The translations under genes and the position numbers were made by a program. DNA of 64,000 bases from Blasia pusilla (taxonomy: Eukaryota), in contig CM114271.1 of the NCBI GenBank assembly GCA_050084515.1, forward strand, positions 25,110,001 to 25,174,000, given 5' to 3'. A model generated the notes under the pieces. That model did no database searches and was not told the origin of the DNA. It saw only the letters and a program-made list of their open reading frames with translations. This document shows, one piece after another, positions 16,836 to 44,059 of the stretch; position 1 is the stretch's first letter, and each line of letters starts with the position of its first letter.

Positions 16836-19800
16836 ATGGATGAAAATTTCCTCTCTGTCGGATTTCTTCTCCAAATTGGAACAATCTTTGTTTCCAAGGA
16901 TGTTAGGGTGGACAGTACGGAGGATGTTGTAGGTGAGATAGTCCAGCCAGTGATAGCAGATTGTAAAGTATGGAATCTCCTACCTCTAAAAAATGGTCAA
17001 TACAGAGTTTATGGCTTGCCTTTGAATTCCTCTGTTTCCCAAGTAGACGGTCCGGAATTTCCTAGTGCATCGAGCTCTACGTTTGCCACTCCCAACTTAA
17101 TAGATCCGGCATCGACTCTAGCTTCACATGTTCGTAACAATGTTGTACTTCCTGAAGATATTCCGGACGTCGTCAACCTCAGTGGATCTGTCAGACACCA
17201 ACAGGGCCCTCTGTCTGCCTACTCATTCCTCTTGCGAGTATCAGGCAATAGTTTGCTGTCGTCTTTGCCCTTTAAAATGTTCAAGCACATTCTTGTCGAC
17301 GAGCTGCCGCCCACATATGATAGTAATTGCATTTTTTAGGAACCTCCACTTGCTGGTCCTGCTCCAAAGAAAGATGGAGGATGCTTGAAGGGTATGGACA
17401 GAAAGTCTGATTGTCATCAATGGCGCAGGCTTCAACGGACTAGTGCTTCAATTCCAGATGGTCCTTAGATTGTTTCTCTCCGCCAATGCGTTGGAGCCCT
17501 GGAGTGTAGAAGTCCAGCTAGCCCGTATCTAGAGCACAATGGGCGAGTCAATACGTTGCAATTCTCCCCAAAGAATGCAGAAACTCCATATGAGGTCGGT
17601 GCGACCATATCGCAGGAGGCCATCAATGTCCTCATTGTCAAGCATCCCCTTTCTGCGTTGGAGTGTGTCGTGCATACATATTTTTCATTGTGCACGACTT
17701 CAATTCTACGACCGAGTACACTTGGCTGGCAGTTCATGTTGGCTCCCACATTCATCCTGTTACTGGTGCAATTCAGAGACACATCAAGGAGGATGTGGCA
17801 AAGAAATTGTCCGAGGTATATAGAAACTCTCCGGGATCAAAGCCCAGAGTGATCAAGTTAACAACAACATCACAAATTTGTGAACAATTGCTTGAAATCC
17901 TTGGATAGAGCGAGATCACGACTGTTGAGGAGAAACAACAATGGGAAAATCTCGCATTTCTCGCTGATCCTGAATGCTTCCGAAGTTTGATCCATCAAAT
18001 ACGGGTACTGGATGGAAAGATGGCCGAAATGGATGCCATTTCCAAAATCAAGGCCAATTCCAGATTTCCATTTATTCAGACATGGCAGTTCATGGGCCAG
18101 GGAGGTGAAGGATCCAGAGCTTATGTCTTCAAAATGTCAACGACAGGGCTGTCGAGTGGCCTCGATCTTATAGATCGAATGAGGGAAGGGGGAGATCTTT
18201 ACGGTAGTTGGGTAAGCTTTGATATTTGCTACAGAGTGTTGAATGGATGGTTGACCATGGGTGCTCACGTTTATGACCATGTGGAGAAGGGACTCAAAAC
18301 TATATTTTTCTGTGAGGTAAAAGCCGAAGATGTTGGCAGTTTGAAGATGGGTTCGTTACTCTTATTGGAGGTGGTGAAGGAAAACAAAAGGCTTCCTCCG
18401 GAAATTTATGGATTCATGGCGGACAATGCACAACCAGGGTGGATTGCTATCAAGGAAGTGTTCTGGGGTGAAGAGGTTCAACCAGAGAGGGAAAGGTCGG
18501 ATGCTTTCCATTGGCAACAATCTGTGACCCCGTACACCAAATCTTGCATCAAGGAGAATAAGAGGACAAAGCATGTCACTCTACTCCAACGCTGCAAGGA
18601 CAACAAAACCTTGAAACAAGCCATGGAGTGCCAAGAAGAACTTTATGGGTGGTGGAGGAAGCATGCGATTGAGGGGAAGTACAAAGAGTTGTGCTCTTGG
18701 ATGAGTTGGTGGACTGTACAAATGAGACAATGGGGAAACTTCATGCGACAGGTGAGTTCAGTATCTCGTCCTGTCGAGCTCATGCTGAGAATTGTTTGAA
18801 AAGTTGCAACTCAAGTTGAGAAGCGTGGGCACTATAGGGATTTCAAACCGAAGAAACCAAGCAGCCCGTCGGATGCGACAGGTTGCCTGAGTGTGCAACC
18901 AGTCGGAAACCGATGGGTTGCATCAAGAATGTTTGTGTTCCTTGTCGGAGCGTGACATCATGCACGAGGAATGTTTCTGCAACCCGTAGGAATCCGACTG
19001 GTTGCATGAGTGTGCAACGTGTCGAATCCCTACGGGTTGTAAGTTGCATGCATACAAGGCCAGCAAATAGTTCGACCCGGATGGGTTGCAAGCCGCAAGG
19101 CTGCGAGTTAACTCGGTCTACGACTTGTCAAATTCCGACAAGTTGCATCTATCTGCAACCTGTGGGATTCCGACTAGTTGCATCTATATGCGACTCTTGG
19201 CATTCATACAGGTTGCGGCTCTCTCCAAGTCGCATCTAGACACGTTGAATCAGCTCAAGTAAATTGGAACCCGTTAAATTCCAATACTTGCAAAGCTTTG
19301 TGTGTGGATACTTCTTGCAAGCCAACGGAATTTGACAGGTTACACAAGGATTTTCGAGACCGAACCGGCCTGCTTCTCACAACCCGTCCGATTCCGACGG
19401 GTTGCAGTAGCAGGTTCGTGGGAACTAGGTTGAAGTAAAAGGTTACTGGGACATTCGAGGGAAGTCTCTGACTTGCAACCCATTTAAATTGGAGGTTGGA
19501 AAATCCATGTGCGATTCGTCGGATTCCCATGACTTGCACTTGGATCTTCCAGCCCAGAGTTACTTGCAACCCGTCTGAATCCGACGGGTTGCAGTAGATG
19601 GTTCTTGGGTGTTGCAATACATCGTAAACCAACGAATCGCAGAATCATTCATGGGATGCCTCCGACTTGCAACCCGTCTGGTTCTGACATGTAGCTTTTT
19701 TCTTTGCTCATAGAGCTATTTTCGTTCCCTTCTCACATTGCCATCATTGCAGGGATTGAACATTCATGAAAATATCCTCTGCCCCAACACAAGTGGAGGA

Positions 19801-21280
19801 GAAAGTGTTCATTCCTCCTGGAGGTCATCATAAGCATGCCAAAGAATTTCACTTGTGGAGGCATGCCAACAGACCAGGCAAGAGCAATGCTACAATTTGC
19901 AGTATCCCATATCTTCCTCACAAAAGGCATAACAAAAGTAAGGGGGCCTTCGATTTACGAGCTCTATGTCAAGGCGGTTGTGAGATATATTGATGAGGAA
20001 CTCTATGTGGAAGCCTTCAATCGGTGCGTAGTAAGAACTCCCCTCGAGCAAGATGTACACATTGGTGGGGATATTCGTGGGCGTGTTTCAAGACGTCCCA
20101 CACAAATGGTGGTAGAGCAGTCCGAGCGAGACTCGTGGAGACCATATAAGTATCTTGACTTCAGGCAAGTGAAGAGGCACCATCGAGGAACAAACCCGGT
20201 GATTGATTTGGATGAAGAAATTACGCCGCCTAGGTAGTCGGAGACCTAGATTGATCCCAAATCCATGATGCAGTAACTTTTCCAAAATCAGTGAATGTTT
20301 TATTTCAAAAGCCCTCCATTGCTGGAAGTTTGCAACATCCGGTCGTTGAAAGTTTGCAACATCTGGTCGCTAGGGTGGTTCAGCAGTATGGGATTCGGTC
20401 ATTGAGGTGGATTGCAACCTCAAAAGATGGCATATATCTTGGAGCAACCCTGGACGTGGACCCACTTGCAGGGCAGGATTAGATGGCATTAGGAGAGCAT
20501 GCGGCACATTCCTAAATAAGAATTGTACAAGGACTAGACAACCACTGCCTAGATTCTGGGGACTCAAAACCTTTGATCGTTTCACAAGGACCAGGGATCA
20601 ATTGAAGTACTTCTTCTGCCCAAATGAATCCTACGCTTTCCGAAAGTCTTATCCGACTACCATTTGAGCTCCTAGGAATACCCCCATGATTTGGCCCATT
20701 GCCGCAGGTACGAATTGCACTTAGGACGAAGTGGACAATCTTACAAGTGTTGGTTTCAGAGTCGTAGACGAAGGAATTTTGGAGCATGTTCGCATTACAG
20801 AGACCTTCGCATTTCGTATTCAACCCAAGATTGATGTCAACATGTATTCGGAGAAGGTGGATGATCTCAATCCACTATTTTTGTTTGAGTTTAGAAATGG
20901 GGTGAAGAGAAATAGAATGTGTAGGCCAACGGTGGAGAGAGCAAAGCGAATCGCATCAGCTTGGGAGGCAAACATAGAAATCATCGCCACAAAAGATGTC
21001 CAGAGTGGCAATGGAATAGGAAGGATGCATTGGGTCAGGAACAACACTGTAAATTCAACTCTCACAGGGGTGTATGTGGTGCACATCTGTTGCTTTCCCA
21101 CATATTCCTGTGATAACTTTGTCCAAAGAGAGACAAGTGGAAAATGTATTTCCCTTGTAAGCACATGTACTATGAGTTGCTTGTAGTTTTAAGAGAGTCG
21201 GAGATAGGAGTAGGAATCCACCAACCAAATCTATCCCTTAAAGAAGTGTGAAGTATTTTAAACAAACCACTTTGAGGATG
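16836..21280 (+). pseudogene. Mutator-like DDE transposase with N-terminal GCM/WRKY-like Zn domain and C-terminal SWIM finger (stops and frameshifts)
   Basis: DCHQW...RQCVGALEC...N..QF...HVGSHIH at ~17410-17760. D at 18221 (WVSFD), D at 18422 (FMADNA), (C/D)xxH motif DAFH at 18500. Phase-0 intron 18752-19752, then E at 19801 (PNTSGGESVHSSW). SWIM-like YVVHI...SCDNF...CKHMY at ~21070-21170. Confidence 0.8.
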
Positions 21281-24200
21281 TAAAATGAGGTCTTAGATTG
21301 TACTTTCATTTGCCAGAACCTTCACTTTGAGCTTGAACTCTATGCAGCCCAAGGCAAATGACAAATTTTTTCCAGACCTTGGTTGGAAAAAGTGATTTGT
21401 TCCACATTTATGATTCCACTGATTTTTCAATTTTTAAAATTTTGTGCAAATTGCAACCCGTCGGATTTAGATGGGTTGCCAAAATGTGGAAGATGAAAAA
21501 AAAATCTGTCGGAGTGCCTAAGCACTGAGAACAACAGTGCAAAAAAATTCACAAAAAAGTTTTGAGTACTCTCTTAAAAAAAAGTATCTCTTTGGGTTAA
21601 AGGTAGTTTCCTCTCTCCTCTCTCCTCTCTTCTCTCTTCCTCTCTTCCTCTCCTCTAAGCGCTCCTTCGGCGCGACGTAGCAGGAAGCGCGGTGCGAAAG
21701 AGGACGACGTGAGGCTAGACCAGACGGAAGCGACTCTGAGGGCCCAACCCGCCGGATGCAGCGTCTCAGCAATGGCGGCAGGGTTGGCGGCATCCTGGGG
21801 ACCAGTGTGGCAAGGGTTCAGGCTAGTGCGGCAGCAACGTAGACGCGGCATTCAAGCAGCGTAAGTTCGGCGGTAGTCGCGGTCGGCGGAGGCTCGGCGG
21901 CTGTGTAGAGGCGGCTCGTCCACGGGCCCCCCTTTCCCCCAAATTTGTTTTTTCCACTAAAATGACCCCTTGAAAACCCGGATTTCTCTATTTTTTCCTC
22001 TTACTTGATTGCCCCCCTCTTTACAGATTACAAATAGCATGCTTTACCACAAATCCCTCCTAAGATTGAGGGTCAACACCCCCCAAAGATAACTTTTCAC
22101 TCAACTTCTTCCTCAAAGGACATGTGCCCTTGTTCTATTCACTAAGTTAACAATGATTTTTATTTTTCTACCTATCAACAAGGATTTTTACCCAAGGATT
22201 TTGGAAAGTTCACTCACACCTTAGAACGGTGGCTATGGCAGCCCAATAAAACTTGTCCTAACTTGGCGCTCACCTACTCAAATTGTGCATTGGTTCTTCC
22301 ACAACGTGCACAACTTCCCGATCTACGACGGTGTTAAATCAATTTCTTCATTTGATCTCCCAACAAAAATTGGCAGGGACTGTCGTGCAGCCCATCGTCT
22401 CTTTCTCCTACGCAAAATTTGGCAGTGCTTCTTTGGTGATTTCTTCCAACACCAACTTCAACCTGTAAAATACAGAAGCCATAAAGCTACACACTGCTCC
22501 CAAGAGCACCGGCATGGGTAATTTTCCCCCACACTCAAATTCTACCAAAATTTGGGCAGCACTTCCATGCGTCCCTCTCTCGTACGAAAAAAGTCAAAGG
22601 AAAATATCAAACTGACTGACTCTTGCTCCCAAGAGCACTCCCATGAGTCATGAAGCAAGGAACACGGTCCCTAACCTGCAAACACAACAAAAATGTAGCA
22701 AGTTCCCGCATTGTAGCTCTCATTCTCTCTTGTAAAGTACGCTCGGATCTCTCTCAACACCATCTCACACCATAGCTCTCAAAGGTGTGCACTCTCTCTC
22801 ATGTCAAACCAAACCCACTCTCCTTATAAGAGCCTTGGATTACACTCACAAGGCAAGGGACCATAGCTCCGCCGTCTCATGCCATGAGGTTCAACAAAGA
22901 GAGAATGAGCTCTGTCATGACCATACGGATTATGTCGTAGAGTATAGTGTGCTAGTAGAGGCCATACCTTATGTAGAGCCGTAGTGTCTAGATAGAGATG
23001 CAGTTTCATACATAGGGTTTGGGGTGACTAAGTTGAGGGTGACTTTTCCAGTAGAGCCCGCTCTTAGGTTGGAGGATATAGTGTGGAGTGCACTCAAAGA
23101 ATATTTAGTTCTTTGAGTTGAGCCTGTTGCGTTGGGAGTTAGCCTTGGTAGTGAGTAGAGCTCTTGGCTATGGTGGTTCTCGCAAGCTTCGACTTGGATT
23201 ATCCCATCGTGGAGTGGGTTTGGCTCGATTGTATGTGATTCTATACGTGTTTTATGACAGTAGAAATTTCACGGATTTCACTCAAAGAACTAGAGTAGAT
23301 CGATGGTAACTTCGATTGTGGATCAGTAGGATCTGGTTAGGGCTTATTGTGTACTCAACCGTGGATTTTCATGGCTTGTGGCCTATTTTGGAGGTAGGAA
23401 TCTGATGCATGGTTGGTTGGGAAAGAAGTGCCTTGTTGAGAGCTTTCCAACGTGCTTTAGATGCCAGATTCCGTCAAGGGAGTTGGAAGTTATCAAGGAT
23501 TGAAGATTATGGTTCGTGTTTGACGGTTTTCTGATGTGGAGAGCTTGGAGTGCGGAAGCTCTGTTGAAGTTCATCAAGATCGGGTGAGACGTTCCTATTG
23601 CTACTTATATTGTGATCTCATGTGAAGCTATCTGCTTGAGTGTGTGGAGCATTGCGGATTTCTGCGTGTATGAATCTGGGCGGAAGCACTGTCGGATTTG
23701 TGATTCTGGAGGTGTATGGACATTAAGTTTGCCTGATTTTTAGCTCAGAGTACAGAGCTTGATTGTAGCTTTTTTTTTGTGGAGAGATAGCTATGGTGAT
23801 ATATTGAATTCTGGTTTAAATAGATTCAATTTTGGTTGGGGATTTGTGGAGTAATTGCTGATCGAAATTTTGAAGAGTAGCTCAAGGACTAGCTATGGTG
23901 GACAGCAGATCGGAGGGGCTGGTTGGTTGGTGATTCGTCCGTTGTTGGAGAGGCCTATCCCATTGGGGGCGCCCTGGTTGGGCCTCTCTCCATAGCAAAG
24001 CATGGCAAAGCGTGGCAAATGGGGCATGTCTCGAGCATTTCTCGGCGTTCCGAGGCTTCGAGGCAACTCGTGGTAGCTCGGGGCGAGTGGGCGTGAGAGG
24101 CGGAGTAAGGAGCAAGGAGCAAGCAAGCAAGCTTGCTTGCTTGGTTGGGCGTGAGGCAGTTTTTGCAGGATTTGTGATTTTAGTGTTGCATAACTGGTCA

Positions 24201-24916
24201 TCCATCTTTGGGCTATTCTGCCTGGAAGACATTTAACTGCTGAGTTCTTAACTATGCCAGTGTACATATTGGTGTAGCTCATTTGGTGTTGTTCGGAGAG
24301 GTGTTAGGCGGTTTATGCATCTCAATTTTTTGGTTGATGGACCTCTAGCACATAGTATGGTGTAGCCTCTCCATGCAGGTGATATTTTCAAGTGCTGCGA
24401 GTCCGACTAGCACGTCATCGACCCGCGGCGGAGTAGCTATTGCGTTAGAATTGTGTGGTGGAATCTGTGGATTCAGGGGGCGCCATGTTTGGTGGATTAT
24501 GTTACCTTGATTTCCATTTGTGATTGGAGGGTTGTCGTTGGACTTTCTGTGTTTGGATCCCCTCCATCGTTGCTTCTTGCTTGCGCGCCCATTGTTAGGG
24601 TTGACGCTGATTTCGAGTAGTGTTATACGTGTGCTGCTCTTTTGGTAGTGAGGCTGGAGTGATGACTAGTAGACCGTGGGAGGCTTCTTGTGGTGATGAC
24701 AGGTTAGGTTGCCTACACCCATAGCTAGTAGAGCTAGAATAGTACAACGACATCGACGTCACTTGGTTACTTAGTGGTGGTAATTTGGTGGTGGTGCGGC
24801 ATCGGCGTTGGTCATCACGGAACTGTCTCGTGGTCTGGTTGGGGATCGTGGTGCGGATAATGGTGGTTTTACATGGAGTGGATTGAGGTATCGGCTACCT
24901 CTTCCACTTCCGACAG

Positions 24917-26568
24917 TTGAATGAGGCCATGAAGGGCCCACGACGATACTCGTGTGCAGTGGGCACCATTGAGTTGGAGGACTTCATACAGGAGTTTGAT
25001 ACGTGGTGTGATATGCAGATGTTGCGGAACGCCACGTTGTTTACACCCTTCTTGGCTTGGAAGGGGTTGTTTCAGCACTTGGAGGGACCACCCATGGATG
25101 ATTACCATGAGTTCAGGAAGGACCATGTTGTTGAGATAGAGGCGTGGAAACAATATTGGTCTCCAGACTATGTGTCTATCACCCATGGTGGTATTGGTAG
25201 TAGTGCTCCTACTATGCCAGCCAGCCCGACGTTGAGTGGTACGAGTACGAGCCGGAGTGGGGGTACCAGTGGAGGTGCCCATGGAGGTACCAATGGGGGT
25301 ACTAGTGGAGGTACTAGTGCCCCACCATCGTTCAACCCGGTTGCAGAGTTCTTCAAGAGGTTGAAAAAGAATTATCAGGGAGTGAAGACAGAGAAGTTGA
25401 GGAGTCTCCAGGAATTTGAGCGAAAGACTGGTGAGAGTCTTCGTGAGGCATACACTCATATGCGACGCTTGATTTCAATTACCCAGGGTGTGGCGAGGCT
25501 CGAGCAGCACCGGTTTTGGTATGGAATCTTGGATAGAGAGTTGCGCCCCAGGGTACGTTATGCTACTCTTATGAGTGATGATTCACCCACATTGACCCAT
25601 GTGTTTGCTCTATCTGAGAAGATTGAGCTTAACATGGTGGAGGAGAGAGTGGTGACATCCGCATTTAGTAGGGATACAACTACTACTTCTCGTGTTCAGC
25701 AGTCCACCTCACAGTCTTGTAGTAGTGGTGTTGGTAGTAGTAGTGGGAGTCGTGGGGGGTACATACGACCTCAGTCAGGTCCTAGAGGGACACTTGCGCA
25801 GAGACCATTACCTTCATTTTGCCTTGCATGACAGGGCGATCATGTTGGACATGTGGAGGTGATCATGTTAGGAGGTTTTGTCCCCAAGAGGATGGGAGAC
25901 GGACTTTGGAGGATGGGCCTCAATCGGCCCCAACTCAGTGTGATCATTGCGGGAGACCAGATCATCCTCGAGAGCGTTGCTTTGATCTTCATCCAGAGTT
26001 GAGATCAGGCCGCGGCCGTGTTGGAGTAGCTCCGAGAGGCCAAGGTGGTAGGGGTGGTAGAAATGGACCAGTGGTTGGAGAGCCTACGGTGGCTACCCCT
26101 ACCACTACGACAGAGTTAGCGATGGCTGCCAGGATTGAGCAGTTGGGGCAAAAGTTGGCTACTATGGCTCGTATCCAGCATAGAGCAGGTTCGGGAGCAA
26201 GGGCTTCCACCTCTTATGGAGGGGATGATTTCTCTTATATGGCGAGTGCAGCACAGGTTGAGGCATCAACTGTAATTACAAGAGGAGCCACTCGAGCATC
26301 AGAGCCATGTGGTGCTACTGTGGAGTTGGACCCACAGAGGGGTGAGGCTGGGAGGCAGGCTAGCCTTCCCCAGTCATTCTTGTTGTCTGAGGTGCTTAGG
26401 ACTCCATCCATGGTTCCTACACAGCCTATTGAGTCGGTGATGGGGGCCGAGGCATCTACATCATGTGTAGTAGACACGGATCGACATCAATGTAGTATTG
26501 CGGATGGCAACTTCAGTGTTGGGATCCCCATTGTTTTCGGCCACGGAGCTGATGGCTTTAGGAGTTGA
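24917..26568 (+). pseudogene. gag: Gag-like protein with two CCHC zinc knuckles (frameshifted)
   Basis: ORFs 24917-25831 and 25819-26568. Motifs CWTCGGDHVRRFC and CDHCGRPDHPRERC. Confidence 0.85.
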
Positions 26569-26739
26569 CTTAGGTCCTGTATTTCAGCTAGCAGCCACAT
26601 TGTGTGAACGTGGGGGTGTTACTGCTACACATTCTGAGGTGGATGAGGTGTTGCGGTGGAGCGACCCTCTATGTCAGGTGTAGCATTGAGTACCAGTGCT
26701 ACTTGGTCAGGCAACAGCGGCAAAGATGGATGCATTACC

Positions 26740-27200
26740 AACCCGGCCAGCCATTGATCGTGAGAGGCTTACACCTGGTGTATGTATGTTGGACAACCGG
26801 AGTGGGATATTTTGATTGGTGAGTCCTACATGACAGGTGTATAGACGAGATATAGTCTTGTTAGACTCTGGTGCCCAACCTTTGATGTTGGGAAAGGCGA
26901 CATGTATTGGTTTGGGTATTCGGAGGTCAGAGCTTGAGCCTTGCCCATTCTAGATTCAAACATCACTTGGAGGAGCCAATGATAGGTCTCAATTCATGAC
27001 ATGGGAGAAGTTGTCTATACATTTTAGACCAAATCATGCGACTGATAGCTCCCGATTGGGAGTACCTGCAGTGGTCACATCAGTCGAGTCATATGATGTA
27101 CTAGTTGGAGGAGCAGTATTGTACTCGATGGGTTTTCAGATGGACTATTGGACTAAGACAGCATCTTATAGACTTGGTTGGCAGTCCGAGGGATGGACGT
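26740..27200 (+). pseudogene. Retroviral-type aspartic protease domain
   Basis: VLLDSGAQPLMLG at ~26855-26895 and downstream YDVLVGG. Confidence 0.85.
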
Positions 27201-27585
27201 ATGAGCCAGGTTCCTCTGAGATCTATTTATGGGGCTCGACCAGGAGGGTCTTCCCCACCGGTGTTAGCATCTGTGGCTGGTTTTAGTGGAGTAGTCACTT
27301 GGCCAAGACTTTTTGGAGGGTAATCTTTCTGCTATGGATTCTCTTGTGCATGAGGAGGTAGAGGAGGTCCCTAGTTTTGCAGTAGTGGCATCCTCATTGT
27401 TGGATGTGCCACTTTGGAATTCAGGCGGTGCACTACGGCAAGAGGCTGATCGCCTAGTGCAGGAGGCTTGGTGTGAGACTGTTATACCTCACAAGGAAGA
27501 GGAGGCCCCATAGCGGACTCCTACTTCTGGTCCAGTTGGGTTATCCCCTTTGGATACTACACCCATTGTATGGCAGTATCTGCCG

Positions 27586-28530
27586 GAGGGCATTTGTGTG
27601 TTAGATCTCTTTGGTGGGATTAGCACTGGTTTGGATGTAGTGTTGCAGACCGGTATTCCTGTGCGGAGATACGTGTATGTGGAGCGAGATGAGACGGCCC
27701 AGAGAGTCTCATCCCAACATATCGGTCAGTTGATGTGGAGATATCCTGAGTTGTCTCCGCCATCAGCTATTCGTGGGTACCAGCGTGCTTTGCCGTTACA
27801 CATTGCATTGTTGGGGGCGTAAGACCTTAAGAGGGTTGGTCCTGTGAATTTGGTGATTGCTAGATGGCCATGTCAAGGTCATACACGTGCTGGTCGTGGT
27901 GAGGGATTACACGACCCTAGGTCTCGATTATTTTGGGAGATGTTACGAGTGTTACGACATCTTCAAGTTCATCAGGCACGTGCTCTAGCTTACATTCTAG
28001 AGAATGTTCCATTGTTGGGTGACACTCGGACCCGGATGATAGCGAGTGTTCATGAGGTGCGGTCTTGGATTGGACCAGCGGTGTTGTTGGATGCTGCGCA
28101 AGTTGGCTCGTGTGCACATCGTCCACGCTTGTGGTGGACAAACTTGTTTCCTAGGGAGGTTCTATGTCGAGCATATGATGCAGTGCAGCGGGATCCTTGC
28201 CTTACAGTGGATAGTATCTTGGATATTGGGCGACTTTCTCAAGTGGTGAGGGTTATTGATCGGTCATCCATGGCAGTGGTGAATCGTGTGGGCCAGCCTA
28301 GGATGGCACTACCCACATTTTTGAGTTTTCCCTCGTCACATGCCTACAGGGAAGGTGGTCGTGGGCTTCTATGGGATTCTCATGTGCAACAGTTGGTGGA
28401 GCCTAACGCTGATGAGAGAGAGAGCGTGCGATGAGATTTGCTACTGGTGTGACATCGGTTGGTTCCATTTTGAGGCTTCACGACGTCATGTGTTGGGTCA
28501 GGCCATGGACCTGAATTGTTTGACTTGGAT
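27586..28530 (+). pseudogene. C5-cytosine DNA methyltransferase domain (DNMT3-like) within pol, between protease and RT
   Basis: Motifs in canonical order: I VLDLFGGISTG, II YVYVERD, IV LVIARWPCQG (27865), VI ILENV (28000), VIII AHRPRLWWTNL, IX EPNADERE, X RRHVLGQAMD. Confidence 0.9.
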
Positions 28531-28849
28531 TTTGAGTCTTGGGATGGCCGAGCAGCGTCGACTTTGGACTATGTCTATGGGTCTTCCACCCCTTGTGATG
28601 AGCTTGATGGCTACCGGGACGGTAGAGACATCGCCTGCGGGCGAGGAGAATAGTATTTTGCATCATTGGAGTAAATGGGATGTAATGGTTGGGCATGTGG
28701 AGTTGGTTGCTCATGCTGGTGGAGGAGTTATTTGCTCAGATGATGGTGTAGCTAAGGGTGTACCATCTTGTGGAGGGGTTGCCTAGCAGCCAATGGGGTG
28801 CCATTACTTGGGCCCAAGCTTAGGGGAGGTGAGAAACGACGCTTGACAC

Positions 28850-31200
28850 AATTCCTATGTGCTTATAGGAGTTGTTTTGCCTTTAGCATGAAGGAGTTGG
28901 GTGTTTTGGTTGGACCCGATATACGGATTGATTTGGCTAGTGATTCGATATAGTGATATGGAAAGGAACCTCATTTAGAGTAGGACGTTGGACCTTTTGG
29001 AGGCTGGATTAGTGGAGTTGTTGCATGGAGTATGCATCAGCCACTGTCATGCCTGCTAAAAAGGATGTGCATGGCAACTACACGGATAGGCGGATGTGTG
29101 GAGATTACCATCCTATCAATCGGCATACCAAGGCCGATAGGTATGCCATGCCTACACCTGAGGAGATCTTTGATGTGGTGGGATAGGCAAAGATTTTTAG
29201 TACTTTGGATCTTCGGGCAGGATACCATCAATTTCCGATTTGAGAGAGTGACAAGGCCAAGACAACATTTTGGGGTGTCAACTCTCATGGCAAGGATTGT
29301 TTGTACCATTGGAAATTCTTACCCTTTGGGTTGAAGAATGCACCTGCCGAGTTTTAGAGAGTGATTGACAGGATCCTAGCAGGATTGGATTTTGTTTGGT
29401 GTTACATTGATGATATCTTGGTGTTCAGTAACACGGTGGAGGAGCATCAGATACATTTGCAGATGGTGTTTGAGCGGTTGAAAGCTCATGGTCTACTTTT
29501 GCATCCAGGAAAGTGTAAGTTCTTCCATGAGGATGTTGAGTACCTGGATCATGTGTCGTGCCCCTACTCTCCTTGAACGTCAATCTTTGGTGTTGCGGAA
29601 GCGTGCGTTCAGTAGGTCACGAACTCATCGCCGATCTGCACCCAAACACGCACTCTCGTTAGTCGGGTTTGGCCAACCGGCGTTCCAACCCACCGAGTCC
29701 TCAACTCGGCATCTCATCAAGCTCAACCTTCCTTAGTTCCCAGCTCCCAACACATGGCAAGTCCTTTAAGACTTGGAACAGACTTCCTGGTTAGTCCAGG
29801 GATCTGAAACGGCACTTACACACCTAGCAATCCCAACTGTTCAACGGTCCTCGTGTGAGTTCCGAACCGAGACCCAAGTAATTGAGTCGCGGCGTGAAAT
29901 CCAAGAGGGATGTCTAAAATCGCCTCAATGGACTTGGTGCAGGTTTTCCAACCCAACGCCCAAACTCGCGTTCCGTTCCATGCCCTTGAGCCGCCCCGCG
30001 GCGCCCAAAGTGGGGTTTGGGTTCCAAGCACTCTCGAAGACCTTCCCCCTTACTAGTACTTATGGGGTTCTCCAATAACCCCTCCCCTTTGGGAAAAGAG
30101 GTTCGGTCCCTTCATTTTGGCCCTCAACCCGACTCCACTTACAGTCGTTTTGGGTCGTATCTCGGCCGCTGCTTATGCGTTTGCAGCGATCTTTGGTGCG
30201 TTTGAACCAGCTCTTTATAAGCTTTCCAACGCACTCTTATTTGCTCCAAACGCATCTTGGAGCTAAAAGTTATGGCCATAAATACAGTCGGAAACTCTCA
30301 AACGCAAGTGGCGTTCCAAGTCCGGATCTTTCCTTTGGCAACCCACTTCCTAGACTCGACTTTTTTCAAGTCTCATTCCGCGTTTGGTCCAGGTTTCAGT
30401 CGCGACCATCACATCTGAAATGCGACTTCTCGCTCGCGTCTCATCTCTTGTCTCCTCTTTGAGACAACTCCAACGCGCAAACCATCTTAGCGTGAGCCCG
30501 CTAATGTTCCGATGTTCCGCTTGGCACTTGTTTGGTCATGAGGGTCGCGACATCATGTGATCTATCCAGGTGGTTTGGGAGTTCAGCAAGCAAAGGTGGA
30601 GGCTATTGCACTTATTCCTCATCCGGTAGATGTGAGTAGAGTTCGGGCATTCATGGGATTGGCGACTACTATCGGAGGTATGTGAAGGGATTTAGTGCTA
30701 TGGCAAAGCATTTGAACCAATTGTTGAAATCAGATCAGGAGTGGCACTGGGGAGATCATCAGGAGAGAGCTTTTGTGGAGCTCAAGGCCCAGTTGGTAGA
30801 GGCGCCTATCTTGAGGAGACCTATCAGAGGGCGCCCATTTCAGTTACACACTGATTGGAGTAGGTTGGGACTTGGAGCAGTGTTGACACAAGATGATGAT
30901 GAACACATGGAGTTTGTGGTGGCCTATGCAAGTCGTTCGAATAATGCAGCGGAGTTGCGCTACAGTTCATATGAGGGAGAGTGCTTGGCAGTAGTGTGGG
31001 ATGTGGCACACTTTAGGTGTTACTTGTTTGGCACACAGTTTACCCTTGTTACTTATCACCAGCCGTTCAAGTGGTTGATGGAGTCTGACAAGCTTATAGG
31101 GAAGCTTGCACAGTGGGCTCTTATCTTACAGGAGTATGACTTCCAGGTGGTACATAGACCTAGAGTTGCCAACCTTGATGCTGATGGGTTGAGTAGAAAC
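28850..31200 (+). pseudogene. pol: Gypsy reverse transcriptase and RNase H, interrupted by a solo LTR
   Basis: RMCGDY, FSTLDLRAGYHQ, PFGLKNAP, CYIDDILVFS (~29400), LHTDWSRLGLGAVL, YSSYEGECLAVVW. Confidence 0.92.
29554..30552. mobile_element. Solo LTR (999 bp) of a third family
   Basis: TGTCGTG...CGCGACA with 5-bp TSD TCATG. RT sequence rejoins across it (compare 57380-57410). Confidence 0.88.
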
Positions 31201-31419
31201 CCATATACTAACCAAGAGGATGCAACTGGGGCTAGATGGCATGGCGAGGTTGATGAGGAGATGGTCCCACGTTGGCATGCATCAATGCATCCTTTTTATG
31301 CTGGTTAGGGGTGGATTCTAGTATAGAGGACCACATGACATCTTACTCTAGTCAGAGGGTAGATGGCCAGCCTTTAGATCCTAAGGTTGGAGATGGTGGT
31401 ACGCATCAGCGTGATATTC

Positions 31420-33475
31420 ATGATGATGCGTTGGTGTTGGAGTTCCTATGGACCAGTAGGGCGCCAGGCATAGTGAGTGCCAAGGAGCGAGACCGTGCTC
31501 TTCAACGTGCTAAGAGGTATCGATTGGAGGGAACACATATTCTCCGTGTGTGGGAGGATGGTAGAGTACGAGTAGTGCCACATTTGGCTCATAGAGAGCG
31601 CACTCATAGAGGCGTTGATTGATGATCGGACCACATCTCGAGATCATCTAGAGGCGGATGGTTTGGTTGAGCGTGTGGTTTAGACAGTGAAGAGGGCATT
31701 GCGCAAGTATGGCCTACAGAAGGGGCAGCTTGGAGATTGGGATATTCAGCTGTCATGGTTAGCCATGGGGTATAGGTTCAGCCGCCAAGCATCCTTGGCT
31801 TCCTTCTCACCTTATTTTCTGTTATACGGCCGAGATCCAGACTTGCCCGCATAAATTTTTCGGGAGTCTAGTGAGGTGGTGAACCTTGATGACCCAGAGA
31901 TGTGGATGAGAGTGTGTTCTCGGCGGGCAGAGCTCTTTCGGAGGGTTATGCCAACAGCCTTTGAGAATCTTGCCATTGCTCAACACAGGGATACGTTGCG
32001 GTATGCAACCATTCTGGGTGAAGGTTATCAACCATCTATTTGTAGGTTCCATGTGGGTGTCGTGCGCCTACTCTCCTTGAACGTTAATCTTGTTTGTTGC
32101 GGAAGCGTGCGTTCAATAGGTCACGCTCTCAACGCTGATCTACATCCAATCACGCACTTTGGTTAGTCGGGTCTTGTATCAATCATCGGGATTACTTTTC
32201 GAGTTCTCGTCTCGGACTCTCGTCAAGCTCAACCTTCCTAGTTTTGCGGTTTACAACACGGGAAAATCTCGAAGGACTTGGGACAGACTTTCTGGTCGGT
32301 TCAGGAACCTGAAACGGCGTTTTGCGCCTAGCGGTTCCAATTGTCCGATGGACATCCAATGAGTTCCTCACCAAGACTCACAAGAAGTGAATCTCGGGTT
32401 GGAATACAAGTGTGGGGTACAAAGTCCTCTCCCTTGGATCAGGTTTGGGTTTTGAGTTCCAACGCCAAACTCCCGTTCCATCCCGTGCCTCTGAAATGCC
32501 GTTTGGCGCCCAAAGTGAGGATTCGTGTTCCGAGATATCTTGGAGAGACTCCTCCCTTACTAGTACTTCTGGGGATCTCCGGGGGCCCCCTACATTTAGG
32601 GAAAGACACCCGGGCCTCTCCAATTGGCCCTCAACCTGATTGCTCTCTCAATCGTTTTTGGCCAATATCTCAGCCTGTACTTATGCGTTTTCTAAGATAT
32701 TTAGTGCGTTGGAAGCATCTCAAGATTAGCTTTCCAACCCGCCCTTATTTGTCCCAAATGCATCTTGGAGCTCAACGTTATGGTCCTAAACACAGTTAGA
32801 TTCTCCCAAACACTAGTCGTGTTCCAAACTGGTTCTCACCTCTTTGGAAACTAACCTCCCAAGACTCAACTCATCTCAAGTCTTGGCTCGCGTTTGGTCT
32901 AGGTTTCCTGGTCGCGACCACTAACGCATGAAATGCACAACTCTGTTCTGTGTTTCATCTCTTAAACTTTTCCAAGAGACTTTTCCAAACGCCTCTCCAA
33001 AGCGCTAACCTCGCAGCGTGAGTTCACTTGAGTTCTGATGTTTCACTTGACGCCTATTTGGTGTTGTTTGGTTATGAGGGTCGCGACAATGGGGGACTAT
33101 GTCTATTTGCAGCAGATTGCACCGAAAATGTTGGATGTGACGGTAGGCCGCACTATTTTACGAGTGCGCGAGGTGTTAGTTTCTGGAGTTCTCATGTTGG
33201 AGGGTCGTGATGGACTTATTTGGAAGGACCATGTACGTAATTGTGCGCCATGTCATCTTCCAGATGTGGATGGTACTGTTGACCCAAGCTTAGCCATGAT
33301 ACGTGCTAGCTTGAGGTGCATGTTGTGTGGATCTACTAGTAACGCAACCCGTATGTTGGTGTGTGATCGGTGTTCTAGAGGTTGGCACATGATGTGTTTG
33401 ACTCCACATATGGATGTTGTTCCTACTAGAAGGTGGGTTTGTCCTCGATGTACTCAGGAGAGGCAGTTGACTTGA
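31420..33475 (+). pseudogene. Integrase (internal deletion of ~430 bp at ~31605, solo LTR insertion) with C-terminal PHD finger
   Basis: ADGLVERVV, FSPYFLLYGR. PHD CMLCGS...MLVCDRCSRGWHMMCLTP...WVCPRC. The HHCC motif and first catalytic Asp are missing relative to 58430-58860. Confidence 0.85.
32058..33088. mobile_element. Solo LTR (1031 bp), diverged relative of 29554-30552
   Basis: TGTCGTG...GAGGGTCGCGACA with TSD GTGGG/ATGGG. Integrase sequence FHVGDY rejoins across it. Confidence 0.85.
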
Positions 33476-34542
33476 TCTTTGCATGATATGGATTACAAAT
33501 GGGCGACTAACGATGGGGCAACCTAGCACCCGGCCTTCTGATTCGTGCACCCAAGAAGGTGTATAGCATGTAGTAGATGTATAGGGCTACCTCGGAGTTA
33601 GAGGGACCTAACCACTAGTTAGGGGGGCGAGTTGTGGTACACTTGTATTTGTGGATGTTCTCGTCTATGTTATGTATGTATGTGAGTATGGTATGTCAAC
33701 GATGTATGTTGTATGACGATGTGGATTTGCACGACAGATGTCATGACCATATGGATTATGTGGTAGAGTATATTGTGCTAGTAGAGGCCATACCTTATGT
33801 AGAGCCTTAGTGTCTAGGTAGAGATGCACTTTCATACATAGGGTTGGGGGTTACTCAGTTGAGCGTGACTTTTCCAGTAGGGCCCGCTCTTAGGTTGGAG
33901 GATATAGTGTGGAGTGCACTCAAAGAACAGTTAGTTCTTTGAGTTGAGCCTGTTGCGTTGAAAGTTAGCCTTGGTAGTGAGTAGAGCTCTTGGCTATGGT
34001 GGTTCCTGCAAGCTTTGACCTGGATTCTCTCATCGTGGAGTGGGTTTGGCTCGATTGTATGTGATTCTATACGTGGTTTATAACAATAGGTCTTTAAGTT
34101 GTGGTACACTTATGTTTGTGGATGCTCTCGTCTATGTTATGTATGTATGTGAGTATGGTAGGTCAGCAATGTATGTTGTATGACGATGTGGATTCGCACG
34201 ACAGCTCTCAAGCTCTCTCTCTCTTGGAAGTATACCCCCTTCCCTCTCCCAAGCCCTCTCAACGGTAACCTATGCTCGTAGGTCACCTCCTTGGCTTTGG
34301 ACTTGTTGTAGCGGGTCAAGGCCCACTTCCCAAAGTGGAAAGTCAACTATCCCTAACATGGAAACTTGCCCAAAATAGTAATTTTCTTTGTATGGCTCCA
34401 AATGAGCCGAAACGAAGGGAAAACCTACTCTCTCAGGTTTTGCAGGGCCTCAACAGGTCATCCTCGACCTGTTGGGCATGTCCTCCACAACTTGAGAAGA
34501 CGCTCTGCTAGATCCCACTGATCTATCCTAATAGTCATGATA

Positions 34543-37500
34543 GAGGAGCCAGAACTTGGACTAGAGGAGATGTCGTATGGAGAGTATGCATCTGCCATGC
34601 ATGCCAAGAAGAATATGCATGACAACTGGATAGATAGGCGGATGTGTGGAGACTACCGACCTATCAATCTGCAAACAAAGTCAGATAGGTATGCTATGCC
34701 CACTCCCTAAGGAGATCTTTGATGCTATTGGGCATGCAAAGATAGCTTGTTCGTTGGATCTTCGACCCGGATACCATCAGCTACCTGTCAGATTGGAGGA
34801 TAGGCATTTTGGGACATCGATCCTCACACAAAGGATTGTTTGTACCATTGGAATTTTTTACCATTTGGGTAAAAGAATGTTGTGATTGAGTTTCAGAGGG
34901 TCATGGATAGGATCTTGGTAGGTCTGGATTTTGCTAGGTGTTATATTGATGACATCGTAGTCTTTAACACCAGGGTTGAGGGGCATGAGCAACATATAGA
35001 GGAGATGTTTCGACGATTGCAATTACATGGGCTGAAGCTACATCCAAGCAAGTGCAAGTTCTTCTACGATGAGATTGAGTACTTGGATCACACAATATAC
35101 CCATGTGGCCTTGGTGTGCAGTAGACGAAGGTAGAGGCTATTTCATGCATTCACGCCCTATAGATATGAGTTGAGTTCGTGCATTCATGGGATTGGCGAA
35201 CTTCTATCGAAGGTACGTCAAGGGTTTCAGTTTGATTGTAAAGTTGCTAACCTTGTTGATCAAGATGGATCACGAGTGGCATTGGGGGGAAGAGTAGGAG
35301 AGAGCATTTTAGCTGCTCAAGGACAGGTTGGCATCCACACCCATATTGAGGAGACCAATCAAAGGACATCCTTTCCAATTGCATACAGATTTGAGCATGT
35401 TGGGGCTTGGAGTGGTGCTCACCTAGCATGACAATGAGGGTAGGAGGTTAGTGGTGGCTTACGCTAGTCGCTCGAAGAACGCTGTAGAGGCAAAGTAAAG
35501 CTCGTATGAGGATGAGTGCTTGGCTACAGTATGGAGTCTCGCGCATTTCAAGTGTTACTTATTCTGTAATCTCTTTACCACCATTACTGATCATCAGCCA
35601 CTTAATTAGTTCATCGAGTCCGACAATCTTACATGAAAGCTTGCGAGGTGGGATATGTTGTTGTAGGAGTATGATTTTCAGGTGGTGCATAGACCTCGGA
35701 CGCTTAACCATGATGCAGATGGTCTGAGCCTTAACCCATACCCGAGTCAGCGAGATGCAACTAGAGCTCGGTAGCATGGAGAGAGTGATGAGGAGATGGT
35801 GTCGGGATGGCACGTGTAAGCCTATTTGGGCTTGTTGGCTATGGAGCGTCAGAGTGTTGAGACTTTGATGGCGAGGTCTGATAGAGAGTCCTTAGATCCA
35901 GAGGCCGGTGAGGAGGCGATAGGTGGCCGAGATATTCACAAGGATGAAGTCGTCTTGGAGAACCTGCATACTGGTAGTGTCGCGAGCACAATGGGTGCTA
36001 AAGAGCGGGATCGGATCCTACAGCGAGCCACACGTTTCGGATAGGAGGGGACACATGCGTTGCAAGTTTGGGAGGATGGTAGAGTACATATAGTGACTCA
36101 TCCTTCACAAAGTGCACATTTTGTGTGGCATGTTGATGAGGAGTTGGATCATTTTGGAATGAAGTGGACTTATAGCTTACTCCAGATACAATATTAGCGG
36201 CGAGGCACGTAGATTGACGTTCAGCAGTTTGTTGCTAGGTGCATGGTGTGTGATCAAGTATGGGCATCGTTCAAGGTTTCAAATCCACAGTTCCATCCAC
36301 TTCCAATCATGGATTGAGGTTATAGATGGAGTTTGTATTTTGCAAGGCCTTTACCTTTGACGGAGCGTCATAGTCGTTATGTGTTGGTGATCGTCAAACA
36401 CTTCTTGAAGTAGATAGAGTTGGTTGCATTGCCTAACAAAGCGAGCAAGAGAGTAGCATATGCCTTCTTAGATAGGGTGCTGAGTCATTTTGGCGCACCA
36501 GCTAAGGTGTTGACAGACCAGGGTATGGAGTTTTGTTGGGAGTTTCATGCCTTGTGTGATTAGGCGTTAATCGACCATCGGACCACTTCGCAAGATTATC
36601 TTGAGGTGGATGGACTAGCGAAGAGGGTTGTGCAGTTGATGAAGAGAGATTTACATAAGTATGGCTTGTAGAGAGATCACCTAGGAGATTGGGACCTCTA
36701 GTTTCCGTGGTTGGCAATGGGAAACAGATTCAGTAGGCATGCATCCTTAGCGTCTTTGTCACCATATTTTTTGGTTTATGGCCGAGAGCTTGATTTACCT
36801 ACGGCCATTTTTTGAGATGTTGGTGAGCTGTTAAATCTTGATGACCCTGATATATGTATGGATACAAGCATGTTCTAAGAGGGCTGAGTTTTTTTGGAGA
36901 GTGATGCCCATAGCGTTTGAGAACTTGGCGATTGCGCAACCTTGGGGTACGTTAAGATATGCGACTATTCGGGGAGGTGGTTACCGACATACTATTCAGA
37001 GATTCCATCAGGGAGACTATGTCTACTTTGAGACGGCACCCGCGATGTTGGATGTGACTGTAGAGCGCACTATCTTTAGATGCGTGAGATTTTGCCATCT
37101 AGTGTTCTCTTATTGGAGGGACGTGATGGTATGGTTTGGAAGGACCATGTGCATAACTATGTGCAATTTTATCTTCCTAACATTGATGATATAATGAATC
37201 CTAGATTAGAAATAGTTCTTGTAGGCTTGCAATGTATGTTGTGTGGTTCTGCCCATGGTACAGCCATTATGCTGGTCAGTGATGGATGTTCGAGAGGATG
37301 GCATATGGCATGTCTGACGCCACCTCTCAGTAGGGTACTTTCCTTGGGGACGATGGGTGTGCCCCAAATGTACACAGAGTAGGTAGTGATAGATTTTGAC
37401 TTGTATGTATGACATGGATGATAAGAAGGCGACTAACGATGGGGTCACATGAGCTACCTAGCCTTTTACTCTTAGTGTCCTAGAGAAGTATGTCATGGTA

Positions 37501-38130
37501 GGTAGGGTTAGATGGCTATTTGGAGTTAGAAGGACCTTAGCACCATCTAGGGGATTATTGGAGATATTTTGGCACTTCTCGTCTAGTTGTGTGGACTCCA
37601 TGAGTTAGCATGGGACCGTTTGTGTTTATATGTGCATTCGATGATATCGATGTATGTTATGTAGCTATGTGTATGCGCACGATAATTATCACGTATTTTA
37701 GGATATATCGATGAGATCTAGCAGAGCGCCTTTGGAGATATTGGAAGACACCCTGAGGAGGTCGTGGATGACCTACTGAGGGCACGTGTAACTTGAGAGA
37801 ACAAATTTCTCCTTCGTTTCGGCTTATTTGAAACCATATTGAGGAACTTACTATTTTGGCTAAGTTTCTATTTTTGTATAGTTGACTTTATAATTTGGGA
37901 AGTGGCCCTTCATCCACTACATCATGTCAAGAGCCAAGGAGGTGACCTAAGAGCATAGGTTACCGTGGAGAGAGCTTGGGAGAGTGCAGGGGATATACCT
38001 CAAAGAGAGAGATCTTGAGAGCCCATTCTCTCTTTGTTGAACCTCTTGGCAAGACGCGGCGGAGCTATGGTCCTTCTTGCCTTGTGTGTGTAACCTGAGC
38101 CTCTCATTAGGAGAGTAGGTTTGGTTTGAC

Positions 38131-42935: not shown

Positions 42936-44059
42936 TCATCCCAAATCATGCCTAGCCCTCCCTGACGAAAGGCATGGGATGCTGGAAAGCTCACCAACGT
43001 AGGTAAGGCTACCCTCAACTCCCCCACCCTATTCGCCATCACCGACGGTGGTCTATCATCCCGCGTCACCACTTGAGATTGACGCCCTGAGCCCAAAATA
43101 GCATCCACTGTGAGATGTGGTGGTCTCTCGACTTCATCGTATGCTCGAATCAGTACCTCTGATGGTATCAGGTTCGTCCACCACAGTCGTGGATGATGGG
43201 CGCGTGATCCAACTCTCACTACATCTAACAACACAACAAGTCCCAACCAAGACCTCACTTGATGCACACTCGTCATCACACGTGCACAAGTGTCTCCCAA
43301 CAACGGCATGTTCTAAAAAATGTATGCGGAGAACATGTATGACTCTCCTGCAAGTGTTGTACTACTCGCAGCATCTCCCAAAACATCACTGATCTCAGAT
43401 CCTGCAATCCAAACCCTCGGCCAACTGATGAATGACCCTGACATGGCCATCCAGCAATCACCAAATGAATGGTACCAACTCTATCCAGATCCTATGCCCC
43501 CACCAAAGAGATGTCGGCGGGTAGTGTATGTTGATATCCCCGTATTGCAGATACCGGAAATAACTCAGGATACCTCTGGACCAATCTCACTACGTGACGT
43601 AATGATTCTCGCCGCCCAGTCTCATCTCTCTCCACATAAAGGTATTGATGCACCTGTATGCCTGCCTACAATACCTCTGCCAATCCTGTGCTAATCACTC
43701 CAAAGAGATCTAACACCCTAACACCCTCCTTTGGACACTGCCACACAACGAGGGTGGTATCCAATGGGGTCAACGTCTCCACTCCAGAGGCCCGATCGCC
43801 ACTTGACTCTTGCTGCTCTGGGATAAAAGCATGACTCCATGCCTGCCTAAGGAGGTCGTCGGCACTCCTCTGTGGCTCTCGTGTTGTACCCCATAATGGT
43901 GAAGAGGTCTCGCCAACATAAGAAGAGATACCCGCCATGGCCTGTCTCTCCGTGGGACTATCCACCATTGGGATATCCTTCGCTTGTGCATTCTCCTCCA
44001 ACAACTCTCATGGCCAGCTAACACTACCTATGAAAGCTGCCAACTTGGTCACAGACTCA
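42936..44059 (-). pseudogene. Fragment of an older DNMT-Gypsy copy (methyltransferase domain); continues at 63464-63560
   Basis: VLDLFGVISTG, VIAGWPCQGH, ENM, RAHHPRLWWTNL. The reading GWRSGDGWMSQL...RDE|SVTKLAAF joins across the 44060-63459 insertion. Confidence 0.85.

Follow-up and report, generated by a model that had tools for sequence, protein, structure and literature searches.

Genomic organization of the window

The window, that is, the whole 64-kb stretch of Blasia pusilla contig CM114271.1 analysed here, contains between 22.9 and 63.5 kb a nest of degraded Ty3/Gypsy-type retrotransposons, which was delimited by self-comparison, open reading frame (ORF) lists and domain searches. Four stretches of this nest resemble cytosine methyltransferases of the DNMT3 type (hereafter DNMT). 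An earlier note on this DNA had reported four such copies, and all of them were found at about the positions it gave, with slightly wider limits, by tblastn with the related protein P0002 and by alignment of elements A and B. Copies 1, 4 and 3 belong to the elements here called A, B and C, respectively, and copy 2 is an isolated fragment. The features of element A are the following:

22913-34203, plus strand: element A, a DNMT-bearing Ty3/Gypsy element, complete in outline and degraded (self-BLAST; termini TGTCATG...CACGACA)
22909-22912 and 34204-34207: GCTC, 4-bp target duplication around element A
22913-23280, plus strand: terminal repeat A1, 93% identical to A2
24887-26568, plus strand: Gag region (ORFs; 68% identity to the N-terminus of Marchantia protein P0158; no Pfam match)
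25939-25980: CCHC knuckle in the Gag region (pattern search)
26705-27286, plus strand: aspartic protease (tblastn to the protease part of P0002 and P0021; C-terminal piece without Pfam match)
26864 (start), plus strand: DSGA motif of the protease, in the context LLDSGA (motif search)
27514-28564, plus strand: DNMT3-like domain, copy 1 (PF00145; DNMT3A match; alignment to P0002; frames)
28784-28792, plus strand: stop TAG of ORF1 followed by CAG CCA (homologous stop in B, C and at the ORF ends of relatives)
28984-30661, plus strand: reverse transcriptase (RT), split by nested insertion 1 (tblastn to the RT of P0021 and P0015)
29553-30552: nested insertion 1, in the RT (skipped by RNA reads and DNA contigs)
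30640-31308, plus strand: RNase H (PF17917, 1.4e-32)
31257-32056, plus strand: integrase remnant (tblastn)
32057-33090, plus strand: nested insertion 2, about 1 kb, 71% identical to insertion 1 (skipped by reads and contigs)
33317-33451, plus strand: PHD finger at the C-terminal end of the integrase frame (PF00628, E 3e-10)
33631-34203, plus strand: 3' terminal block, composed of B1 (33631-33736), a 2-nt spacer, A2 (33739-34097) and B2 (34098-34203)

The remaining elements and DNMT copies are arranged as follows:

50702-60426, plus strand: element B, about 87% identical to A and of its family, lying within the gag of element C
50702-51069 and within 59847-60426, plus strand: repeats of element B (A1 in the first interval; B1, A2 and B2 in the second)
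55310-56352, plus strand: DNMT domain, copy 4 (element B), heavily frameshifted
56564-56572, plus strand: stop TAG of ORF1 of element B followed by CGA CCA, with the RT region in the same frame after it
44062-63465, minus strand: element C, second lineage, interrupted by B and without 3' terminal repeat
60460-61368, minus strand: continuation of the gag of element C beyond B
49427 (start), minus strand: DSGA motif of the element C protease, in the context VLLDSGAQ
47723-48764, minus strand: DNMT domain, copy 3 (element C; tblastn)
47477-47485, minus strand: stop TAG of ORF1 of element C followed by CAA CCA, with the RT region in the same frame after it
46729-47316, 45148-45930 and 44392-44745, minus strand: RT, integrase and PHD finger of element C
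42938-44079, minus strand: DNMT copy 2, isolated 1.1-kb fragment (linker and motifs I-VIII), third lineage
34557-37682, plus strand: fragment D, RT-RNase H-integrase-PHD of a C-like element (83% identity)

Pfam, tblastn and motif searches placed protease, DNMT, RT, RNase H, integrase and PHD finger in that order in elements A and C. Membership in Ty3/Gypsy was indicated by the Pfam domains RVT_1, RT_RNaseH, Integrase_H2C2 and rve in that order, together with a CCHC Gag and a DSGA protease. The DNMT was found between protease and RT in A, B and C, as the earlier note had stated for the copies in which both flanks survive; copy 2 (DNMT at 42938-43830, reaching about 44079 with the upstream linker) has neither protease nor RT beside it and adjoins the truncated 3' end of element C. 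Protease and DNMT of element C share one frame over 1659 nt (49583-47925). Fragment D is cut off 5' of the RT and therefore has no DNMT. The lineages are diverged, with pairwise nucleotide identities of 64–68% among A, C and copy 2 and of 87.8% between A and B; over the aligned parts, element C is 64–74% identical to A.

All four DNMT copies are pseudogenes and are non-functional themselves. The existence of DNMT-bearing Gypsy elements at this locus, which was the anatomy proposed in the earlier note, was confirmed, with the correction that the copies of the window are all dead. We consider it very likely that these elements are decayed copies of a bryophyte Ty3/Gypsy-type family of the kind published as 'Gypsy-DNMT3', whose intact members would have a two-product ORF layout with a leaky UAG.

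Identity of the methyltransferase domain

Copy 1 matched the Pfam family PF00145 with an E-value of 5.5e-7 and 29.8 bits, the gathering cut-off being 22 bits, and the relatives scored 27.5–46.1 bits. The profile check against DNA methylases that had been suggested beforehand was consequently passed by copy 1, and not by the separate ORF pieces of copies 2-4, for which no Pfam match was obtained (six of seven queries were blank). The main pieces of copies 2-4 aligned to the same relatives as copy 1, at 39–48% identity. Motifs I (FGG), IV (PCQ), VI (ENV) and VIII (HRPRLWWTNL) and the block preceding motif IX lie in one frame in copy 1, and small frameshifts precede motifs IX and X; copy 1 and the relatives alike have the motifs in unpermuted order. 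Motifs I, IV, VI, VIII and X, all of them announced by the earlier note, are therefore present in copy 1 and partly damaged in copies 2-4.

The damage differs from copy to copy. Copy 1 is interrupted by a TAA at 27820 and, past 28422, by at least two frameshifts. Copy 2, which breaks off before motif IX, carries two stops and one or more frameshifts, and copy 3 contains about seven stops and one frameshift. Copy 4 is separated from copy 1 by 23 indels in the approximately 1 kb of DNMT, 21 of them not multiples of three. A stop codon inside the DNMT is common to element A (27820-27822, TAA), element C (48477-48479, minus strand, TAG) and copy 2 (43492-43494, minus strand, TAG). A programmed stop at this place was considered and rejected, given that element B has CAG (55620), the relatives have Q, E or S and CAG decays to TAG or TAA. 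A symmetric CAG site appears to have decayed in parallel, C to T, in these copies.

Sequence search of copy 1 against solved relatives gave DNMT3A as the best match (6.7e-12), followed by DNMT3B and DNMT3C, with tobacco DRM and M.HaeIII both at 2e-3 and DNMT2 at 0.5. The profile of 61 relatives matched DNMT3A (3.9e-24), DNMT3C (1.4e-23), DNMT3B (5.6e-22) and DRM (2.3e-12 to 9e-11), and the same profile matched the Ty3 Gag-Pol at 4.7e-88. The AlphaFold model of the Calypogeia relative P0161 had a pLDDT mostly above 90 in its DNMT part. When this model was submitted to Foldseek, the best 50 matches listed were all DNMT3A/B/C chains, with E-values down to 3e-17 and TM-scores by target of 0.78–0.84 for the chains consisting of the DNMT3 catalytic domain only. 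In the protein atlas, 'DNA cytosine methyltransferase' clusters only were retrieved (score 0.94), mostly with viral labels. The searches with copy 1, with the profile and with the predicted structure support the assignment of the domain to the C5 cytosine methyltransferases of the DNMT3 type, nearer to DNMT3 than to DRM, DNMT2 or M.HaeIII; the atlas agrees with them at the level of cytosine methyltransferase only. The DNMT3-like identity claimed in the earlier note agrees with them, as copy 1 exceeds the PF00145 cut-off and DNMT3A is the best match in the profile search and in Foldseek.

Relatives, selection and host range

Relatives were searched among 1.84 billion cluster representatives. 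At E<=1e-3 there were 2256 matching proteins, of which 157 reached E<=1e-30, and polyproteins of 1300–3400 aa were frequent. The DNMT domain was present in 248 of the 249 related proteins examined, and RT, RNase H and integrase accompany it in most of the proteins of sufficient length. An architecture could be assigned to 174 of the 248: the DNMT lies between protease and RT, as here, in 49, and between RNase H and integrase in 125, the latter usually with a C-terminal PHD finger; the other 74 were too short.

An unrooted FastTree was obtained from 214 domain sequences, leaving out copies 2 and 4 and the domain matches of less than 250 residues (35/249, both Sphagnum proteins included); host DNMT3 or DRM were not among its rows. 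All 124 rows with the order RNase H-DNMT-integrase grouped in one clade of 152 rows (support 100), and all protease-DNMT-RT rows fell outside it. Copies A and C were placed in a clade of 15 rows (support 100) with Marchantia, Calypogeia and three other proteins, copy A being sister to nine Marchantia rows (support 94). In a larger sister group (P0015, P0028 and others), which has the DNMT between RNase H and integrase, Glu stands in place of the Pro that precedes the catalytic Cys (124/212 rows).

Loss of the catalytic Cys had been named beforehand as an outcome contrary to a functional module. Among the relatives, the motif IV Cys was kept in 211/211 and the Glu of the ENV of motif VI in 212/212; the two Arg of motif VIII were kept in 210/212 and 211/212, and the second Gly of motif I in 199/200. 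The dN/dS of the DNMT, a rough ratio at these distances, was 0.17 for A-C, 0.16 for A-copy 2 and 0.17 for C-copy 2, and the values for the A-C and A-D pairs were 0.13–0.23 for RT and 0.09–0.11 for RNase H. No dS value was obtained for C versus B owing to saturation. The dN/dS check proposed in the earlier note thus gave non-neutral values between lineages, and, rough as these ratios are, they show purifying selection on the DNMT. The four copies, the 248/249 relatives with the domain and the dN/dS of 0.16–0.17 sustain the view that the DNMT is a conserved module and not a one-off capture.

The closest named relatives, at 63–75% identity, are multi-copy 'hypothetical proteins' of Marchantia polymorpha, Calypogeia and Sphagnum, in agreement with the land-plant-type family that had been anticipated. 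The search for longer proteins at E<=1e-10 gave 23 matches, corresponding to Marchantia polymorpha (17), Calypogeia fissa (1), Sphagnum (2) and others (3), with a best identity of 75%; identities of segments to Marchantia proteins were up to 70–82%, from which a liverwort or close kin is deduced as the source of the window. Eighteen members, several of them 1278–1281 aa long, make up a Marchantia cluster at 90% identity that includes Mp_4g09160 and is spread over chromosomes 1, 2, 4, 5 and V. To the male sex chromosome V are annotated, from this young Marchantia family, the members P0263-P0265 and P0268 (Mp_Vg00370, Vg00480, Vg00540 and Vg00690). More distant relatives with full architecture were found in Closterium (protease-side type) and Monoraphidium (RNase H-side type). 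A metagenome scan with a generic motif-IV pattern returned 80 loci of 24–43% identity, many of them from gut or marine samples, which were judged to be ordinary C5 methylases and were not used.

A conserved stop codon between DNMT and RT

About 90 codons past motif X, elements A, B and C have a TAG, which is followed by CAG CCA in A, CGA CCA in B and CAA CCA in C. The RT is in phase with the TAG frame in B and C, and A has a private deletion just past the stop. Because CAG codons undergo C-to-T decay, the copies of the window are insufficient by themselves to prove this stop, and its support comes from the ORF ends of the relatives. Thirteen of 20 relatives from liverworts or mosses terminate at the homologous position, and in the nine with a measured tail this lies 86–92 residues past motif X. 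Of the remaining seven, five terminate before that point, another at 70 residues, and the last is a gene model that continues into the RT. The gene models that join DNMT to RT omit the stop-bearing segment. A conserved frameshift between DNMT and RT was also considered and rejected, as A and C change frame at sites that do not coincide and the frame of B and C runs on in phase past the TAG.

The sequence UAG-CAR-YYA is the readthrough motif of tobamoviruses (PMC3159437), and the hexamer after the TAG fits CAR-YYA in A and C. In P0021 and its kin, the same domain order is found in uninterrupted single ORFs of 2188–2374 aa, and Closterium likewise has one frame. The earlier note had regarded a domain out of frame with pol in intact copies as contrary evidence; P0021 carries the DNMT in frame within one ORF of 2188 aa. 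The description of the DNMT as part of a Gypsy polyprotein holds in that the domain is in frame with the protease, and has to be amended for this clade, in which the conserved TAG parts Gag-protease-DNMT from RT-RNase H-integrase-PHD. Since this TAG lies between DNMT and RT, the DNMT is on the Gag side.

Element ends and integrase

The repeats of elements A and B are split direct repeats: both elements begin with A1, and their 3' terminal block is made up of B1, a 2-nt spacer, A2 and B2. The elements start with TGTCATG and finish with CACGACA (TG...CA ends), and a 4-bp target duplication was identified. GCTC stands on either side of element A, whose insertion site has an uninterrupted homologue near 63115-63135; element B is flanked by TCTG and TCCG. 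Where a Ty3/Gypsy element would be expected to have two equal long terminal repeats, those of A and B are split; TG...CA ends and the 4-bp duplication are present. A DIRS-like element would be expected to have a tyrosine recombinase and no target duplication, and neither was what was found: the integrase core is rve, and there is a 4-bp duplication. No chromodomain was detected in any Pfam scan of the window or of the relatives, and the integrase C-terminus has a PHD finger instead. B-type repeats were not found around fragment D, whose repeat is truncated, nor at the 5' end of element C.

A1 and A2 of element B are 97.8% identical, which suggests that B is a young insertion. The coding region of B is full of indels of 1-2 bases despite these near-identical repeats, and either real decay or assembly error could be the cause.

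The integrase of element A has an internal deletion near 31602-31610, where loose read ends were found at 31602 and 31610. Position 31375 is joined to 31949, with 8 other letters, by RNA reads (16, 31 and 47 in the three runs) and by no DNA contig; this junction may represent an expressed deletion derivative without part of the integrase or a difference between copies. The ends of the nested insertions 1 and 2, (G)TGTCGTG...GCGACA, resemble those of element A itself, and both insertions of about 1 kb have 4-bp target duplications (TCAT; GTGG/ATGG). Possibly the two are non-autonomous partners served by the same integrase. RNA coverage is present on insertion 2 and almost none was seen on insertion 1.

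Expression and abundance

RNA evidence was taken from three raw-read runs, whose organism label is the same as that of the best-matching DNA run. The reads cover the whole element, and in the three runs the DNMT bins reach 30-72x in one direction and 0-3x in the other. Reads at least 99% alike to the window were 14/3679, 5/3601 and 13/3994 of those aligned. As these are so few, the transcripts come from other, related copies. In one DNA run, 192,148 contig pieces align to the element, from which it follows that the family is highly repeated.

Other features of the window

No match to Rfam was found in the window, nor did the gag, the C-terminal pieces of the protease and the remaining large ORFs have any match to Pfam. 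Several ORFs of 150–476 aa without Pfam match are located at 3269-13485 and 17909-21186. Further repeats occur within the first of these regions, where 3269-4504 is 91% identical to 8367-9610 and 4726-6814 is an inverted repeat of 13485-11371 (74%). The repeats and ORFs of both regions are probably other, unclassified transposons. At approximately 330-560, a long GA/CT dinucleotide run gives rise to pseudo-ORFs of the type SLSL... and RERE...

Comparison with known systems

The concept of a Gypsy element with a DNMT has already been published. De Mendoza et al. (2018; PMC5890265) described in their main text the Gypsy-DNMT3 of Klebsormidium nitens, with conserved catalytic residues and a Ka/Ks below 0.2, and the idea that such an enzyme may methylate the cDNA or the target site was put forward in the same paper. 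The elements analysed here coincide with KnitGypsy-Dnmt3, as far as its published description goes, in having an intronless DNMT3-type domain without DRM-like rearrangement inside a Gypsy coding region, with the catalytic residues kept; the Ka/Ks below 0.2 there compares with 0.16–0.17 between lineages here. A legend of that paper also gives DIRS-like repeats with Gypsy-like domains, which the order A1...B1-A2-B2 fits. The differences concern the host, a charophyte there and with bryophyte relatives (Marchantia, Calypogeia and Sphagnum) here, and the copy number, since few copies were reported in K. nitens, whereas 4 copies lie in 64 kb here and the family is highly repeated. In addition, the main text of the 2018 paper does not mention a stop between DNMT and RT, a PHD finger, TG...CA ends or a 4-bp duplication, some of which may be shown in its figure 4c or supplements. 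Among our matches there was no K. nitens sequence by name.

Later papers, in the parts available, mention TE-borne DNMT3 'in streptophytes' citing the 2018 work (PMC12344493; bioRxiv 10.64898/2026.05.21.726589), and the methylation papers on Marchantia, to the same extent, name host enzymes only (PMC5784723; bioRxiv 10.1101/2021.02.12.428880). Our literature search found no description of such elements in land plants, although supplements may list cases. The bryophyte host range, the conserved stop, the PHD finger and the split repeats are what is added here.

Animal DNMT3A, DNMT3B and DNMT3C are the best matches in sequence and fold, and they share with the domain the unpermuted motifs and a short VIII-IX region. 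In contrast, identity in the structural alignments is only about 22–24%, here no PWWP or ADD adjoins the domain, and here the domain belongs to a retroelement polyprotein whose PHD finger is distant, at the end of the integrase. Chromoviruses resemble these elements in combining a Ty3/Gypsy core with a chromatin-reader domain on the integrase C-terminus, which is a chromodomain in them and a PHD finger (PF00628) here. We know of no chromovirus with a methyltransferase. DIRS, PAT and Ngaro elements have the split direct repeat layout A1...B1-A2-B2. The same terminal layout was found here, but together with a DDE integrase (PF00665) and not a tyrosine recombinase, and with TG...CA ends and a 4-bp duplication. 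Finally, an in-frame UAG that parts an abundant upstream product from the polymerase is also found in the Gag-UAG-Pol of gammaretroviruses and in the UAG-CAR-YYA of tobamoviruses (PMC3159437), where it is read through. The stop here differs from the gammaretroviral one in being placed past protease and DNMT instead of past Gag, and its readthrough is a prediction from sequence.

Proposed mechanism and alternative explanations

In an intact element, ORF1 would encode a Gag with CCHC knuckle, the aspartic protease and the DNMT3-type C5 cytosine methyltransferase, and would end at the conserved in-frame UAG in its leaky (CAR-YYA) context. The RT, the RNase H and the DDE integrase ending in a PHD finger would follow downstream in the same frame, so that occasional readthrough of the UAG would make them, Gag-protease-DNMT being the abundant product. 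The enzyme would be active on DNA and would methylate either the reverse-transcribed or newly integrated DNA of the element itself or the DNA of the integration site, and the PHD finger might read histone tails and steer integration. We tentatively propose, as a reading less likely than not, that these elements may belong to an old green-lineage clade of retrotransposons with integrase-PHD and methyltransferase. In its liverwort branch the DNMT, made at the level of Gag, would be loaded in particles and would set host-like cytosine methylation on the cDNA or the fresh insertion of the element itself, the PHD finger would choose the chromatin, and the ends would be rebuilt from the internal B-A junction in a DIRS-like manner, although with a DDE integrase.

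Several data weigh against the reading of these copies as remains of an active, two-product element. No copy of the window is intact and so nothing functional is present here. The Pro of the PC motif is replaced by Leu in copy 3, and copy 4 has PCR in place of PCQ. The dN/dS ratios between lineages are rough because dS is saturated (1.6–2.0). Moreover, A and B have diverged neutrally since their split, with a nucleotide-guided dN/dS of 0.73 (confidence interval 0.46–1.28), which replaced a protein-guided value of 0.92 distorted by the frameshifts of B; such near-neutral divergence is as expected for dead copies. With respect to the stop, the hexamer of B has one mismatch to CAR-YYA, C-to-T decay of CAG codons makes shared stops elsewhere in the copies of the window, and readthrough of the TAG is itself deduced from sequence. 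The sense strand of the RNA reads is assigned on the assumption of the usual convention for stranded libraries. Finally, the sole published activity test of a Gypsy-DNMT3, performed in yeast with the K. nitens domain, gave no methylation according to the text of PMC5890265, whose authors considered it inconclusive.

The likeliest alternative, though an improbable one, is that the enzyme is active on the host genome, silencing competitors or altering chromatin, and not on its own cDNA or insertion; the anatomy would then hold and self-methylation would not. From its position ahead of the stop, the domain is predicted to be produced at the level of Gag, above what a packaged enzyme needs, and effects on the host epigenome were raised for dinoflagellates in the 2018 paper (PMC5890265), in the portion of it consulted. 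Against this, the fusion to Gag and protease would carry the domain into particles and would favour action in cis. These targets are not distinguishable from sequence.

It is less probable still that the conserved domain is no longer a DNA methyltransferase, acting as a non-catalytic binding or regulatory module comparable to DNMT3L or methylating RNA or RNA:DNA hybrids. The negative result of the K. nitens domain in yeast and the Glu for Pro before the catalytic Cys in 124/212 rows, which characterizes the sister architecture RNase H-DNMT-integrase, would be compatible with it. However, human DNMT3B also failed in the same yeast assay, as stated in the text of PMC5890265, which makes this test uninformative. 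Furthermore, the catalytic residues of the relatives are near-invariant (Cys, ENV Glu, both Arg of the RxR and motif I Gly, in the counts given above). DNMT3L has lost such catalytic residues. Fold and sequence are also closest to the active DNMT3A/B/C, the RNA enzyme DNMT2 being matched only at E 0.5.

Lastly, the stretches might be fragments of a DNMT3 gene of the host, or go back to one chance capture that was passively copied along with a dead element. This explanation can practically be set aside in spite of all four copies being pseudogenes and of the neutral A-B divergence, given that the domain has the same position in three elements of two lineages about 35% different in DNA, its dN/dS between lineages is as low as that of RT, no introns were seen in the DNMT stretches and hundreds of relatives from green algae to mosses keep it in the retroelement frame (174/248 assigned; 2256 at E<=1e-3).

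Biological significance

A cytosine methyltransferase borne by a retrotransposon inverts the usual picture, as the parasite carries the silencing enzyme of its host. The hosts described, dinoflagellates and Klebsormidium, do not lend themselves easily to manipulation. Elements of this kind are present here in a bryophyte genome, in which they are abundant and transcribed, and they have close multi-copy relatives with long ORFs in Marchantia polymorpha, annotated there as hypothetical only. Knock-outs, methylomes and transformation are routine in Marchantia polymorpha, and these relatives could make the function of the enzyme testable in a model plant. The position of the DNMT upstream of a stop in leaky context, together with the PHD finger of the integrase, leads to concrete hypotheses on the dosage of the enzyme and on the targeting of the element.

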